A DNA stretch of 32,000 nt from Promethearchaeota archaeon. Lineage in GTDB: Archaea; Asgardarchaeota; Hermodarchaeia; Hermodarchaeales; Hermodarchaeaceae. Location: contig JBHLMI010000019.1 in assembly GCA_048938295.1 (NCBI GenBank), forward strand, positions 1 through 32,000, read 5' to 3'. Both the position numbers and the translations under genes were made by a program. Under the pieces are notes generated by a model. The model searched no databases. It was not told where the DNA came from and saw nothing but the letters and a program-made list of their open reading frames with translations. Positions 12,031 through 22,504 of this stretch are shown here, one piece after another; position 1 is the first letter of the stretch, and the number at the start of each line of letters is the position of its first letter.

Positions 12031-13236
12031 TTAGAAGGTATAGGGATTGTATAGCGGTAGTTGTGGGAACCAGCCGTGGATGAGTTTCCGGGTGGAGTCG
12101 CTTATCCCCTTTATCCATCCATTATACTCAAGGGCTTCAATGGAATGAGTACCGTAGACAAGGGCACTAAGTCCCTGGATTGAGGTTTCGAGTTGGGCAC
12201 TCCGTTTTGTCATACTCACGTCGAGTTGGTCATTAGTTGATTTGAGTAGGTAAGTGCCGTTATTCCAGCCACACTGAGAATCTGTCAGTGTAAGAATGAG
12301 TTCGCCGTCAGTTGATACTGGAAGTCCTTTAAGAGCTTCTTTGGCGTCAATGACACGTACCATCCAAGGGTGCCAGACCTTGATTTCAATCCAGTCTTGG
12401 AGGTGTTCGAACCAGTGTTGAAAATCTGTTCCATAGGGCAAAATCATGTGGATGGTTTGGATTTGATCCCGGTGTTTGCCTAAAAAATTAAAGAGGACGG
12501 CTTGAGCTTGGAGGGAGCGCCAGTACATTTCTCTGATTGTGAGTTCGCCTTGTTCGAAGTGCATGTACCCTTTGAGTGTGTAACGAGCGAGGGCTTCGAC
12601 TTTACCGGCTTTTTTAATGAAGACGTAGTGATGGTCTTTGTTGCGGCGGCGCCATTCCTCATCCCGGATTGAAGGGTTGTATGCATATCCATGAAACTTG
12701 GTAAGTGCGAAGGCTTTGATGAAAGTCATATAGAGTTCTTTGGCTTCGTGTCCTGGAAGTCGTTCAACTGTCCATTCATCGCCAATCATACTATCTGATG
12801 GTACACGTAGGCCACTCATAGGAGCTTTCAATCGGAATTTGTCACACGCAGGGGCATATCCAAGGTGTGTGTAGAAGGATTCTCGGAAGGGTTCAAGCAT
12901 GCTTACTGAGAGTTCAGTTTCCTTCATTTCAAGAAAAGCGCTTTGCATGATTGATCGGACATAGCCTTTCATCCGGTTTTCCGGATTGGTGCAGATCATG
13001 GAAAGACCGCCCATGCCCTTAAGAATGCCGCGAATTGATTGCTGGGTACGCATAATAGTGGCAACCGAAACGAGAGTATCGTTCTCAAAAAGTCCGATGC
13101 TATTTTCAGGAATCATAAAATTGTGGTCTTCATCACGGACATCTTGGTCTGTCCAAAACCCGTAGGAGTATTGATGGAGTTTGATGACATTAATCATGTC
13201 CTCTTTGGTGAGTTTTCGGATTTCCATTTGCATCAC
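12031..13236 (-). CDS. Eis-like GNAT acetyltransferase (tandem GNAT plus SCP2-like C-terminus), paralog 1
   Basis: Acetyl-CoA motif ICTNPENRMKGY, then PFRESFYTHLGY, WMVRVID...AL, D..CGWNNGTY and a terminal YTF; 401 aa. Confidence 0.85.
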   Translation of the reverse strand: MMQMEIRKLTKEDMINVIKLHQYSYGFWTDQDVRDEDHNFMIPENSIGLFENDTLVSVATIMRTQQSIRGILKGMGGLSMICTNPENRMKGYVRSIMQSAFLEMKETELSVSMLEPFRESFYTHLGYAPACDKFRLKAPMSGLRVPSDSMIGDEWTVERLPGHEAKELYMTFIKAFALTKFHGYAYNPSIRDEEWRRRNKDHHYVFIKKAGKVEALARYTLKGYMHFEQGELTIREMYWRSLQAQAVLFNFLGKHRDQIQTIHMILPYGTDFQHWFEHLQDWIEIKVWHPWMVRVIDAKEALKGLPVSTDGELILTLTDSQCGWNNGTYLLKSTNDQLDVSMTKRSAQLETSIQGLSALVYGTHSIEALEYNGWIKGISDSTRKLIHGWFPQLPLYNPYTF

Positions 13237-14227: not shown

Positions 14228-16162
14228 TCATGAGCTTATTTTTCCGAAGTGGGATTCATAAAAGGTTTGGATTGCTTTTTCTGACGGAAGGGTAACCTTA
14301 CGCCACACGTTGATAATTGGTTGCAACTTGTCTAAGTGTTCTTGACTGGAAAACAGGTTGGTTAGGTAGTTGGTGCGTTCATCAATATCGCGTTGGCAGA
14401 ACGCCAAGTATTCTTTGGGTGAATAGTAGCGGAGTGGATTGAACCGTTTCCGATAATTGGAGAGTCCATGGGTTTCTTCCAGTTCAGTGGGATCTGGAAT
14501 CAGATAGGCGTCACCGAAGACCGGGTGTGGATGCCATGTCTTAATTTCACGTGTTTCCGTTAGTTTGACAAGGAGTTTAGTGTCGCTAACTTTGATTTTT
14601 TCACCTATGCCAAGGTATTCAGGTTTCCCTTGAGCGTTTAGATATGGTTTCCCGGTGGCTTCATCGATTTTCGGTACGGCGTGACCTTTCTCATCAAGGC
14701 GTCGACGTTGTTGTCCTGCGAGGTCATACTCGCCTACATAACCTGAATTCACGATGGCGAATACGAGTTGTCCATCAAGGTCAAGGTTCATGTCAGTGTA
14801 CATGTCTAGTTTGAGGAGTGCTTGGTGGCTTTGTTCTCGGGCCATGAAATCGGTTGCGGCATATGAGCGGACTCGGGTTCCAGGTATCTTTCCACCAATA
14901 GCTGAGGTAATCACTGATTCACAGGCAGAATCAAGAGCGACTGCCATGATGGGGTCAGTGATGCGAACGACTAAGGGGAAGATGTCAAATCGCCGAAATG
15001 ACAACATTTCTGTACGCAGTTTCTTCGGTGAACCCGGTTTCCAGTCGGGATTCAGGTCAAAGAAGCGGAAGACGAATCGACCATTGGTAGTTCCCGATTG
15101 CTCGTAACGTGTTGGTTGCAGGTGGCCCACCCGTTGACCCGGGAGTGCTCGGGGAACCTTGACTGAATATCCAGTGATTTCTTCCACCCGATATTCAATT
15201 CCTTCACAATCAATGTTTTGGGCGAGAACAACCGGCCTGGATCCATCTGGCCGGATTTGTTTGGACTTCATGAGTCCAGGCCATTCGGGGCTATCAGGGA
15301 CCAATCCCTCACTCTTCGCATAGGAAGCGGCTTCAAGTCCGATTAATTGTACCTCAGTGATCTTGGACGTAGCATTATGTTTGAGTAATCCAAGGACAGC
15401 ATCATCTTGTTCAAGTTGAGGGCCTACAGTAAGAGTCGTTTTACCAGTGCCCGAGAGACCTTTGAGAACACGGCTACTAGTGCAGCCGGCATGATAGGAT
15501 ATGCAGCCATCAGCTTCCCCGCGATTCCAGACCAGGGTCAAGTTGGGTTTCTTGTAAGCCCCACCAAAATAATCGATCCGTAGACTCATCACCCGACGAT
15601 GATCTTCGTCCATACGAGTCAAGTCATACAATGTAAGGGGTTCATCGGGGTCAAATTCTGGCCAGAAAGATTGAATTTCACGAATTACATTTGCGGGTAA
15701 GCGTTCTTGCACAATATAGTTCCAGCAATTGATTTCCATATTCTCCTCTGGTGGGTAAATCATCAAACGGCCAAACCAAGTGATATAAGCGGTATGAGGA
15801 TTCTCCACGCTGAGTACAATTCGAAGCCCCGTCTTATATTCACCTTCCCCTTGAATTCCGTCTTGGACGATGACTTTGGCAGTTTTGAGATATCGGAGAA
15901 CAACATCATAGAGTTGGAGTCCGATTTTCCGGTCGAAGCTGCGTTGACCTTTTCCCAGTTTATACCCTTTGGGAATAATGTAGAAGGCACGATCGGGTCG
16001 TCGTCCTGCCTGTGTGTTACCGAAGAGATATTGTCCGTCAACGGTTTGGACATAATACGGTTTGAGGTAGTGGGTAAACCATTGGTCGTCTGGATTGTAA
16101 AAGACCTGCTTTTCATCAATGTACAAGTCATCTTCAATATGTATCGGCACCATATTGCCCAC
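14228..16162 (-). CDS. pckA: Divergent ATP-dependent-type phosphoenolpyruvate carboxykinase
   Basis: Kinase-1a GLSGTGKTTL, AGRRP (GRSP-like), GGAYKK (GEMKK-like), YHAG (metal His), QDD (GDD-like), EAASYAK (EGGCYAK-like) and TNGR (NTR-like), all in the PckA order. Confidence 0.7.
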   Translation of the reverse strand: MGNMVPIHIEDDLYIDEKQVFYNPDDQWFTHYLKPYYVQTVDGQYLFGNTQAGRRPDRAFYIIPKGYKLGKGQRSFDRKIGLQLYDVVLRYLKTAKVIVQDGIQGEGEYKTGLRIVLSVENPHTAYITWFGRLMIYPPEENMEINCWNYIVQERLPANVIREIQSFWPEFDPDEPLTLYDLTRMDEDHRRVMSLRIDYFGGAYKKPNLTLVWNRGEADGCISYHAGCTSSRVLKGLSGTGKTTLTVGPQLEQDDAVLGLLKHNATSKITEVQLIGLEAASYAKSEGLVPDSPEWPGLMKSKQIRPDGSRPVVLAQNIDCEGIEYRVEEITGYSVKVPRALPGQRVGHLQPTRYEQSGTTNGRFVFRFFDLNPDWKPGSPKKLRTEMLSFRRFDIFPLVVRITDPIMAVALDSACESVITSAIGGKIPGTRVRSYAATDFMAREQSHQALLKLDMYTDMNLDLDGQLVFAIVNSGYVGEYDLAGQQRRRLDEKGHAVPKIDEATGKPYLNAQGKPEYLGIGEKIKVSDTKLLVKLTETREIKTWHPHPVFGDAYLIPDPTELEETHGLSNYRKRFNPLRYYSPKEYLAFCQRDIDERTNYLTNLFSSQEHLDKLQPIINVWRKVTLPSEKAIQTFYESHFGKISS

Positions 16163-16283: not shown

Positions 16284-16289
16284 TTATAA
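16284..16289 (+). promoter_or_regulatory. Archaeal TATA box (TTATAA) with A-rich upstream BRE-like sequence, for queT
   Basis: caaagcagTTATAAg. The usual ~25 nt spacing places the start site at ~16310-16314, where the structured leader begins. Confidence 0.55.
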
Positions 16290-16312
16290 GGAGTGAAGGC
16301 GTGGCGATGTCC

Positions 16313-16373
16313 GAGCGGGTGGGTTCCTCGCACCGAGTTCCGCTCATTTAAATAAATCCCGGGCTGCGAGGTG
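16313..16373 (+). ncRNA. Candidate translational riboswitch (pseudoknot sequestering the SD) in the queT 5' UTR
   Basis: Stem GAGCGG(16313-18)/CCGCTC(16340-45), an A/U-rich linker, and loop CCTCGCA(16326-32) complementary to TGCGAGG(16365-71), which overlaps SD GAGGTG(16368-73). Confidence 0.5.
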
Positions 16374-16381
16374 TCATTGTC

Positions 16382-16885
16382 ATGAAACGAGCTAATTTAA
16401 ATCGTACTCAAAGCATTGCCCTGATGGCAATTATGGCTGCCGTATATGCAGCGGTCACTATTGCCTTAGGATCCCTCAGCTATTATGGCATCCAATTTCG
16501 TATTGCTGATATACTTTTACCATTCCCTTTCATCCTTGGCTGGCCAATGGCGCTAGCCCTGTTTATCGGGGGGTTTGTTGCCAATATCTTTGGTGGATTA
16601 GGAGCCATTGATGTTGTTTTTGGGAGTCTCCTTAATCTGCTAGCGGGTATATTGGTGATGAACAGGAAAACCTGCCCCTATTGGTTCCTCGCCTGGTTGT
16701 ACCCCACCCTTATCATCGGATTGGGCGTCCCAGCCTATCTTCAGTTTCTGGTCTTCACGCCCTACATTCTCCTGATGCCCGGCATCCTCATCAGCACCGC
16801 TATCCTGTGTGCCATTGGTGTGGTCGTGATGTTTGCCGTTGAGAGGGCATTACCCCAAATCTTCATCAATTCGACAGAATCCTGA
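16382..16885 (+). CDS. queT: QueT-family (7-deazaguanine precursor) transporter, ECF S-component-like
   Basis: 'ALMAIMAAVYAAVT....LSYYGIQFRIAD' and 'GGFVANIFG.LG.IDVVFGSL' match QueT; 167 aa hydrophobic; SD GAGGTG. Confidence 0.85.
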   Translation: MKRANLNRTQSIALMAIMAAVYAAVTIALGSLSYYGIQFRIADILLPFPFILGWPMALALFIGGFVANIFGGLGAIDVVFGSLLNLLAGILVMNRKTCPYWFLAWLYPTLIIGLGVPAYLQFLVFTPYILLMPGILISTAILCAIGVVVMFAVERALPQIFINSTES

Positions 16886-21289: not shown

Positions 21290-22504
21290 TTAGAAGTATA
21301 CGACATTATACAGGGGGAGAGGTGGGAACCACCGTTGAAGTGCATGTCTAGCCCATTCTTCTGTGATTGATAGTTCAGCTTGAAACTCTAATTCCTCTAT
21401 TGGATGTGTTCCGTAGACTAAGGCTGAGAGCGCTTGAATGGTAGCTGTTACTACAGGATGCCCTGAGCTTTTAGTTAGTCGTAGGCGTCCCTTTTCTGAT
21501 TGAAGTGAGAAGATTCCATTGTTCCAGGGACAGTTGGCATCTGTGAGTTCGATGGTGACGGTGTCATCTCCAGCACCTGGAAGGTTTTGGACTGCGTTCT
21601 TCGCGTCGATGATGCGAACCATCCAAGGAGTTCTAGCCTGATTAACTTTCAACTGTGCATCTTTGAACCAATGTTCAACCTTGGTATCGAAGGGAGCATG
21701 TATGCGGATATTTTGAATTTGGTCCTGGTGTTGTTTGAAAAAGAAAAAGAGCTTGTCACGAGCTTCTCGAGTTCGCCATAAGAGATCGAGGACATGCATA
21801 GTGGAGTGGGTTTCACCTTCGATTTGTACTCCTTTAATCCGATACCGGCTTAAAGCTTGGATTTGGCCCTTATATTTGACAAAGACAATGAGACTTTCCT
21901 TTGTAAACTGTCTCCACAGAGCATCAGGGAAGGTTTTGAAAATGAGGTAACCGTGATAGTGTGTAGGACCTATTTCGCAGACAAATTTTAGATATTCTTC
22001 TTTGGCATTTCGTGCGCGAACCCTCTCAAAGGTCCAGTCCAGATTCGGTTGTGTTGCGTCGAATATGTTAAGCTGTTTGAGCGGGGCTTGTACAATATAT
22101 GCGGTATTTGCTGCAACGTACCCGAATTGTTCATAGTAGCTTTGTTTAAAGGGATCGAGCATACTGACCGGTTGCCCCTTCTCGTGCATCATCTTGAACC
22201 CTTCCTGCATTAATTCCCGCACATATCCCTTCCGCCGCGCTTCCGGGTATGTTGCAATACCAGCTACCCCTCCACAATCCTTGAGTACACCACGGATTGA
22301 TTGTTGGAATTCGTGGACGCTTAAAGAGGAGACCAAGCGCCCTTTTTCAAACAGCCCCAGAGTTTCTTGTTCAATAATGAGATCTAGTTCTTCGCTCTTC
22401 TCATCCTGATCTGTCCATTCCGTGTATGCATATCGGTAGAGCGCCATGATGGCAGGGCGTTCATTCTTGGTAATTTTCCGAATTTCCTTCATCAGAAGAT
22501 CCAT
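21290..22504 (-). CDS. Eis-like GNAT acetyltransferase, paralog 2
   Basis: VAGIATYPEARRKGY, PFKQSYYEQFGY, WMVRIID, DANCPWNNGIF and terminal VYF; clearly homologous to 12031..13236. Confidence 0.87.
   Translation of the reverse strand: MDLLMKEIRKITKNERPAIMALYRYAYTEWTDQDEKSEELDLIIEQETLGLFEKGRLVSSLSVHEFQQSIRGVLKDCGGVAGIATYPEARRKGYVRELMQEGFKMMHEKGQPVSMLDPFKQSYYEQFGYVAANTAYIVQAPLKQLNIFDATQPNLDWTFERVRARNAKEEYLKFVCEIGPTHYHGYLIFKTFPDALWRQFTKESLIVFVKYKGQIQALSRYRIKGVQIEGETHSTMHVLDLLWRTREARDKLFFFFKQHQDQIQNIRIHAPFDTKVEHWFKDAQLKVNQARTPWMVRIIDAKNAVQNLPGAGDDTVTIELTDANCPWNNGIFSLQSEKGRLRLTKSSGHPVVTATIQALSALVYGTHPIEELEFQAELSITEEWARHALQRWFPPLPLYNVVYF

Follow-up and report, generated by a model that had tools for sequence, protein, structure and literature searches.

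The 70-base leader of queT in this Hermodarchaeota genome was found to carry an RNA motif of ~60 nt that is conserved and covaries across lineages to a degree far beyond what chance would give. The motif represents a real, widespread, and uncatalogued archaeal regulatory RNA, and probably a riboswitch of a new class with preQ0 as its ligand. We assign a probability of about 0.72 to the reading that it acts in cis as a translational OFF riboswitch, belongs to an archaeal class not described so far, and responds to a 7-deazaguanine base, of which preQ0 is the most likely. The evidence consists of the sequence itself, its conservation, covariation in P1, P2b, and an inner hairpin, the position of the motif at the predicted 5' end of the transcript, and gene context. 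From these we infer ligand binding, the identity of the ligand, the OFF direction, and the geometry of the pocket.

The window, i.e., the whole stretch of DNA analysed, is 32,000 nucleotides long. The original prediction for it had described a TATA box, a P1 stem, an inner GTG/CAC pairing, an A/U-rich linker, a CCCGGG segment, and the spacing of the Shine-Dalgarno (SD) sequence. Each of these was recovered base by base, and the leader can be divided as follows:

16284..16289, + strand: putative TATA box TTATAA, predicting a start site at about 16312-16314
16313..16318, + strand: P1 5' strand GAGCGG, with an invariant GCGG core and a flanking pair that covaries
16319..16321, + strand: conserved L1 nucleotides G-U-R, also the 5' arm of a weak GUG/CAC hairpin
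16326..16332, + strand: anti-SD CCUCGCA, the 5' strand of P2b, covarying with the SD strand among relatives
16333..16337, + strand: P2a 5' strand CC-G-A-G, the last G conserved
16338..16339, + strand: short L2, a variable base (U/C/A) followed by a conserved U
16340..16345, + strand: P1 3' strand CCGCUC, pairing with GAGCGG at 16313-16318
16346..16360, + strand: L3, an A/U-rich linker with AAA (16354-56), a variable base, and CCC (16358-60); AAA and CCC are conserved
16361..16371, + strand: P2 3' strand (GGG, C, UGCGAGG), forming a duplex with the loop
16368..16373, + strand: Shine-Dalgarno sequence GAGGUG, part of it buried in P2b, with a spacing of 8 nt to the ATG at 16382
16382..16885, + strand: queT, 167 aa, ECF-type S component for a 7-deazaguanine precursor (PF06177)

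The loop of P1 spans 16319-16339, and the GTG/CAC pairing within it joins 16319-21 with 16331-33; G16319 is able to wobble with U16339. The linker occupies 16346-16357 and CCCGGG 16358-16363. The predicted perfect complementarity between CCTCGCA and the SD-overlapping TGCGAGG (16365-16371) could be read directly in the sequence, and the SD, GAGGTG, is in turn complementary to the 3' end of the host 16S rRNA (contig C48). The duplex of the P2 3' strand with the loop was calculated at -15.1 kcal/mol, pseudoknot loop costs excluded. Assignment of the downstream gene as queT was borne out by a PF06177 match (E 3e-26, 92.7 bits, cut-off 33.7). A terminator scan, whose sigma-70 part is unsuited to archaeal promoters, revealed no terminator in the leader.

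On its own, this copy is only weakly unusual. The hairpin had a folding z of -1.4, and the leader as a whole one above 0; single-sequence folding, which has no means of modelling pseudoknots, was uninformative. A 7-nt match between loop and tail arose by chance in 1.5% of loop shuffles. The case thus rests on comparison across lineages.

To this end, 24 queT loci fetched by protein homology, without use of a sequence pattern, were inspected. The leader preceded queT in all 17 genomes of the Hermodarchaeota family in which queT was found (17/17), and in seven further loci from two other Asgard families. A covariance model detected one copy each in 27 of 151 Asgard genomes, which belong to the Hermodarchaeota family and three more, and in 151 Thermoproteota genomes it gave 28 strong matches, each of them located upstream of queT, often in a queT-queC arrangement. 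A shorter form of the motif occurs widely among Bathyarchaeia, Nitrososphaerota, and Methanomethylicota. When GTDB genomes were scanned with a pattern, the matches listed comprised 84 archaeal and 36 bacterial ones; the archaeal matches came mostly from Bathyarchaeia, and also from Asgard, Nitrososphaerota, and Methanomethylicota. No euryarchaeal or DPANN copies were among the pattern matches listed; the covariance model was applied to Asgard and Thermoproteota genomes. At least 120 matches were obtained in a pattern scan of metagenomes.

The 36 bacterial matches listed were dismissed as chance, none of them (0/36) preceding a gene of the preQ0 pathway, and so was a single viral pattern match. 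Two weak covariance-model matches (L230 and L231) were also rejected; they apparently lie within 23S rRNA and have no que gene nearby.

The motif core reads GCGGGUR ... G-N-U-CCGC ... AAA-N-CCC. Its invariance in the pattern-derived sets is partly by construction; the homology and covariance-model sets are less biased, and in them the base after AAA may be C, U, or A, the variable L2 base may be U, C, or A, and the GG after CCC can be lost. Hermodarchaeota have the variant CCG-W-G, where other archaea have CYG. The AAA of L3 is present in 203 of 204 copies, and unpaired positions are nearly invariant over several phyla, which suggests a pocket. In three copies (L228, L229, and L345), AAAA replaces GG after CCCC, with CCC retained along with the G that precedes the L2 bases, so most of P2a appears to be dispensable. 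Another copy (L202, genome G154) scores lowest of the three that its genome contains and has an A in place of the middle C of CCC, and the queT frame downstream is intact; this copy may be decaying, or may be a sign that the middle C is not the specificity base.

The genes downstream of the motif form a coherent set. The first gene could be read for 81 of the archaeal matches listed (in the remaining 3 of 84 the context is cut by sequence ends), and it was queT in 76 cases, queE in three, queC in one, and an ECF-like gene followed by queC in one. Operons led by the motif include queE-queC, queE with GAT-queC, queE-folE, and queC-queT, and one Nitrososphaerota genome has three copies, located before queE-queC, queE-folE, and queT-queC. 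Among the copies found, the archaeal motif is restricted to genes of preQ0 import and synthesis. The link to the preQ0 pathway is supported by a context that extends from queT to queE, queC, GAT-queC, and folE.

In two loci (L087:5727-6557, minus strand, and L293), the motif stands before the gene of a membrane protein without a Pfam or NCBIfam match, and in L087 queC is the next gene. The Atlas places this protein near archaeal ECF S components with a score of 0.93, making it a candidate new preQ0 transporter; membership in the regulon marked by the motif is evidence for such a role.

Covariation was found in both P1 and P2b of queT leaders from related archaea, where it had been suggested that it be sought. 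The pair flanking the invariant GCGG/CCGC helix is formed in 92 of 94 sequences, as GC, AU, CG, UA, GU, or UG, and in 199 of 204 in a larger set, where the maximum among shuffles was 156. On the QueT tree, 23 and 26 single-side changes of this pair corresponded to 30 joint changes. In P2b, the length of the C run in the loop equals that of the G run in the SD in 131 of 150 copies (shuffle mean 73, maximum 95), and cognate loop/SD duplexes are more stable than those with permuted partners (-15.8 versus -13.7 kcal/mol; 0/10000). Whole-helix swaps can be seen in single cases (L127, L137, and L122) and within Hermodarchaeota (L006 and L011-L017). The shuffle tests ignore kinship and overstate significance, and related sequences do not count as independent; safeguards are provided by the count on the tree and by the range of phyla covered. 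These data support the prediction of an H-type pseudoknot masking the SD.

The inner hairpin, GUGG/CCAC, is a third helix that also covaries, with the pair formed in 171 of 181 copies (UA 151, GC 14, CG 3). It takes up two Cs needed by the anti-SD/SD helix, and the two structures are therefore mutually exclusive. In the copy from this window the competing hairpin is weak, whether formed as GUG/CAC or as CUCG/CGAG, contributing 0.4-1.7 kcal/mol beyond P1. That P1, the loop-to-SD helix, and the competing hairpin all covary suggests a translational switch with two states. TATA-like hexamers are most frequent 29-36 nt upstream of the P1 GCGG (199 copies), which indicates that the motif begins at or near the predicted 5' end of the transcript; the commonest distance from the SD to the start codon is 7 nt.

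The location just downstream of a TATA box is also what would be expected of a DNA-level operator formed by the GCGG...CCGC inverted repeat, or of a constitutive hairpin stabilising the 5' end, and in another Asgard lineage queT is preceded by a palindrome instead. We consider this explanation very improbable: the distance between the arms differs by over 10 nt among copies, the stem accepts G-U wobbles, loop and SD covary, and the mutually exclusive hairpin is conserved as well.

In the riboswitch mechanism that we propose, the transcript would begin at the motif and P1 would fold first. When little ligand is available, the inner hairpin (GUGG/CCAC in Bathyarchaeia-type copies, the weak GUG/CAC or CUCG/CGAG here) would hold the anti-SD, leaving the SD free, and QueT, or elsewhere QueE, QueC, or FolE, would be translated. 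Ligand bound at the P1/P2 junction (the conserved G-U-R, G-N-U, and AAA-N-CCC) would stabilise the H-type pseudoknot, whose long P2 would bury the SD. That the switch would turn expression OFF is what end-product logic predicts for uptake and synthesis genes alike. The conserved AAA and CCC of L3 are candidate pocket bases. Speculatively, the ligand might pair with one of two unpaired Cs of the tail, flanked by the U of L1 or the U of L2, above the conserved G-C pair that opens P2.

The same closed state could be brought about by a protein, in which case arcTGT, QueC, or another RNA-binding protein would keep the SD inaccessible as long as its substrate or product is abundant. Structured leaders bound by proteins of the pathway are a common arrangement, the host has TgtA, which is an RNA-binding enzyme, and a protein site and a ligand pocket look alike at the level of sequence. 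Such an operator nevertheless seems unlikely to us. The motif is kept in Hermodarchaeota, yet no full-length QueC was found there, and a compact junction that is nearly invariant across phyla and stands before both transporter and biosynthetic genes is the usual pattern of riboswitches. Several features by which riboswitches are generally recognised were observed: location in the leader of a coherent gene set (81 of the 81 readable archaeal matches among those listed), conserved structure, covariation, conserved unpaired bases, and alternative folds, anti-SD/SD versus inner hairpin, that both covary, although the competitor is weak in this copy. Counted against the riboswitch reading are the missing classic specificity C, the weakness of the competing hairpin here, and the lack of ArcS, RaSEA, QueF, and GAT-QueC matches in the host.

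The original prediction had raised the possibility of a new variant or a preQ0 sensor, and the data favour this reading. A scan of the locus against Rfam at permissive thresholds returned only chance matches to snoRNA and T-box models. All three preQ1 models were also run genome-wide. The preQ1-I model RF00522 gave no match at the locus at E<=10, and five further copies of the motif were likewise without a match at E<=1; preQ1-II (RF01054) gave no matches in the host genome, and preQ1-III (RF02680) gave none at the locus. Pocket bases differ too, and by these sequence measures the motif falls outside preQ1-I, -II, and -III. The loop sequence GGUUCC, which resembles a type III preQ1-I signature, was rejected as such, since relatives have GGAUGC, GGAUUC, or GGAU at this place.

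The closest resemblance is to preQ1-I. Both are small H-type pseudoknots with a G-C closing pair on P1 and an A-rich L3, both have the SD in the P2 3' strand and control queT and queCDE-type genes (PMC11625349), and the location upstream of queT and other que genes agrees with the membership criterion for that class (queT, yhhQ, or queCDEF). Class I is, however, defined by a strictly conserved specificity C before the P1 3' strand (as UC or AC) and by a U that opens L1 atop a G-C floor pair (PMC11625349). The archaeal motif has N-U at the former position, and its L1 opens with G, the U coming next only if a G-U pair closes P1. It also has three or four additional bases (N-C-C) between the A tract and P2, a P2 of ~8-11 bp with an internal loop, and a separate anti-anti-SD hairpin, and it is archaeal. 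A P1 register with UC as the specificity site was discarded, as the C in question is matched within P1 by an invariant G.

The shared H-type layout, A-rich L3, and C-containing tail could also mean that the motif is a divergent bacterial preQ1-I, with the same alpha pocket, a G-U closing pair, the U of L1, and a C at the L2 position; such a C is indeed present in 14 of 17 Hermodarchaeota copies. Across 204 copies, however, the L2 bases are TT in 180, CT in 15, AT in 8, and ATT in one, so that U prevails at this position (180 copies) over C (15) and A (8); it is U in this copy, and RF00522 had no match at the locus even at E 10. We judge this origin improbable, more so than a protein-bound operator.

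PreQ1-II likewise stands before queT, pairs a loop anti-SD with the SD, and acts on translation. It has an HLout fold with four helices (P1-P4) and U-A-U triples and is confined to Bacillota (PMC11625349), whereas the archaeal motif consists of two stems and an inner hairpin with no HLout layout. PreQ1-III shares the location before queT and an anti-SD/SD helix, but is ~100 nt long, with five helices in a larger HLout fold, compared with ~60 nt here. SAM-II and SAM-V riboswitches are H-type pseudoknots in which a long P2 is divided into P2a and P2b and runs into the SD, and their L3 is AUAAA-like. The archaeal motif shares this architecture, but has no Rfam match to them, an L1 of G-U-R rather than a U run, and preQ0 genes rather than sulfur/SAM genes downstream. 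According to PMC8241225 and PMC11549558, the fluoride riboswitch of Thermococcus kodakarensis is the sole natural riboswitch of archaea to have been validated. It is likewise natural to archaea and thought to act on translation, but its class is shared with bacteria and its fold and ligand are unrelated to those of our motif.

As to the ligand, the host encodes the archaeal tRNA G15 transglycosylase TgtA (L161:1471-3072; 513 bits, cut-off 350), and arcTGT inserts preQ0 (PMC5699537). QueE, full-length QueC, and QueF were not found in the host genome, which is 92% complete, nor did any ArcS, RaSEA, or GAT-QueC candidate exceed the cut-off in it. QueC and QueF were also absent from the other 18 genomes of the family that were searched; Hermodarchaeota matches covering only ~65 N-terminal positions were not counted as QueC. 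An archaeal TGT with no QueC, QueE, or QueF found makes preQ0 the likeliest ligand, with odds that we put at about even. The simplest reading is that these organisms import preQ0 via QueT. The host may stop at preQ0-tRNA or use an unrecognised archaeosine synthase.

The same riboswitch might instead respond to another 7-deazaguanine (archaeosine base, preQ1, or CDG/ADG), a sub-case of our main reading that we regard as possible but distinctly less probable than preQ0. One copy (L144) precedes queE and GAT-queC, whose product could be free archaeosine base, a point left open in PMC5699537; bacterial QueT has been described as a preQ1 transporter (PMC11625349); and the host has no recognised archaeosine synthase. 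Against this, QueF (profile PF14489, which QueF-like proteins may escape) was not found in 24 genomes of motif-bearing lineages, so that preQ1 would not be made there by the known route, arcTGT takes preQ0, and most of the regulated enzymes end at preQ0.

Literature searches, with most subscription papers outside their coverage, found no published description of the motif, and a 2024 review of preQ1 riboswitches treats three bacterial classes and never mentions archaea (PMC11625349). The motif matches none of the catalogued RNA families and most likely belongs to an undescribed class of archaeal riboswitches. If so, metabolite sensing by RNA would be routine in Asgard and TACK archaea, and RNA would have a fourth way to read a 7-deazaguanine. 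The regulon that the motif marks is evidence that archaeal QueT imports preQ0 and that Hermodarchaeota salvage it. What is added here is the Hermodarchaeota variant, the distribution in Asgard archaea, the apparently salvage-only host, and a palindrome that replaces the motif before other Asgard queT genes. An RNA of ~60 nt can be tested in vitro without culture of the host.

The palindrome, TACGTA-N4-TACGTA, lies a few bases before the queT start in two loci (L024:1438-1453 and L026:1450-1465), with a near copy in L025, immediately ahead of the start codon. These QueT genes belong to two other Asgard families and have no RNA motif. The exact pattern occurs in 2 of 351 loci, and looks like a transcription-factor operator in place of the riboswitch. 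The QueT proteins of two further loci (L027 and L029) have an N-terminal extension of ~30 residues; the likely start codon in L027 is TTG or GTG, unusually far from the SD.

Elsewhere in the window, a 644-aa protein is encoded divergently from queT (14228-16162, minus strand) and has only a partial match to PEP carboxykinase (PF01293, residues 70-249, 32.8 bits). Two similar 400-aa ORFs located ~9 kb apart (12031-13236 and 21290-22504, both minus strand) resemble Eis-type GNAT acetyltransferases by eye.
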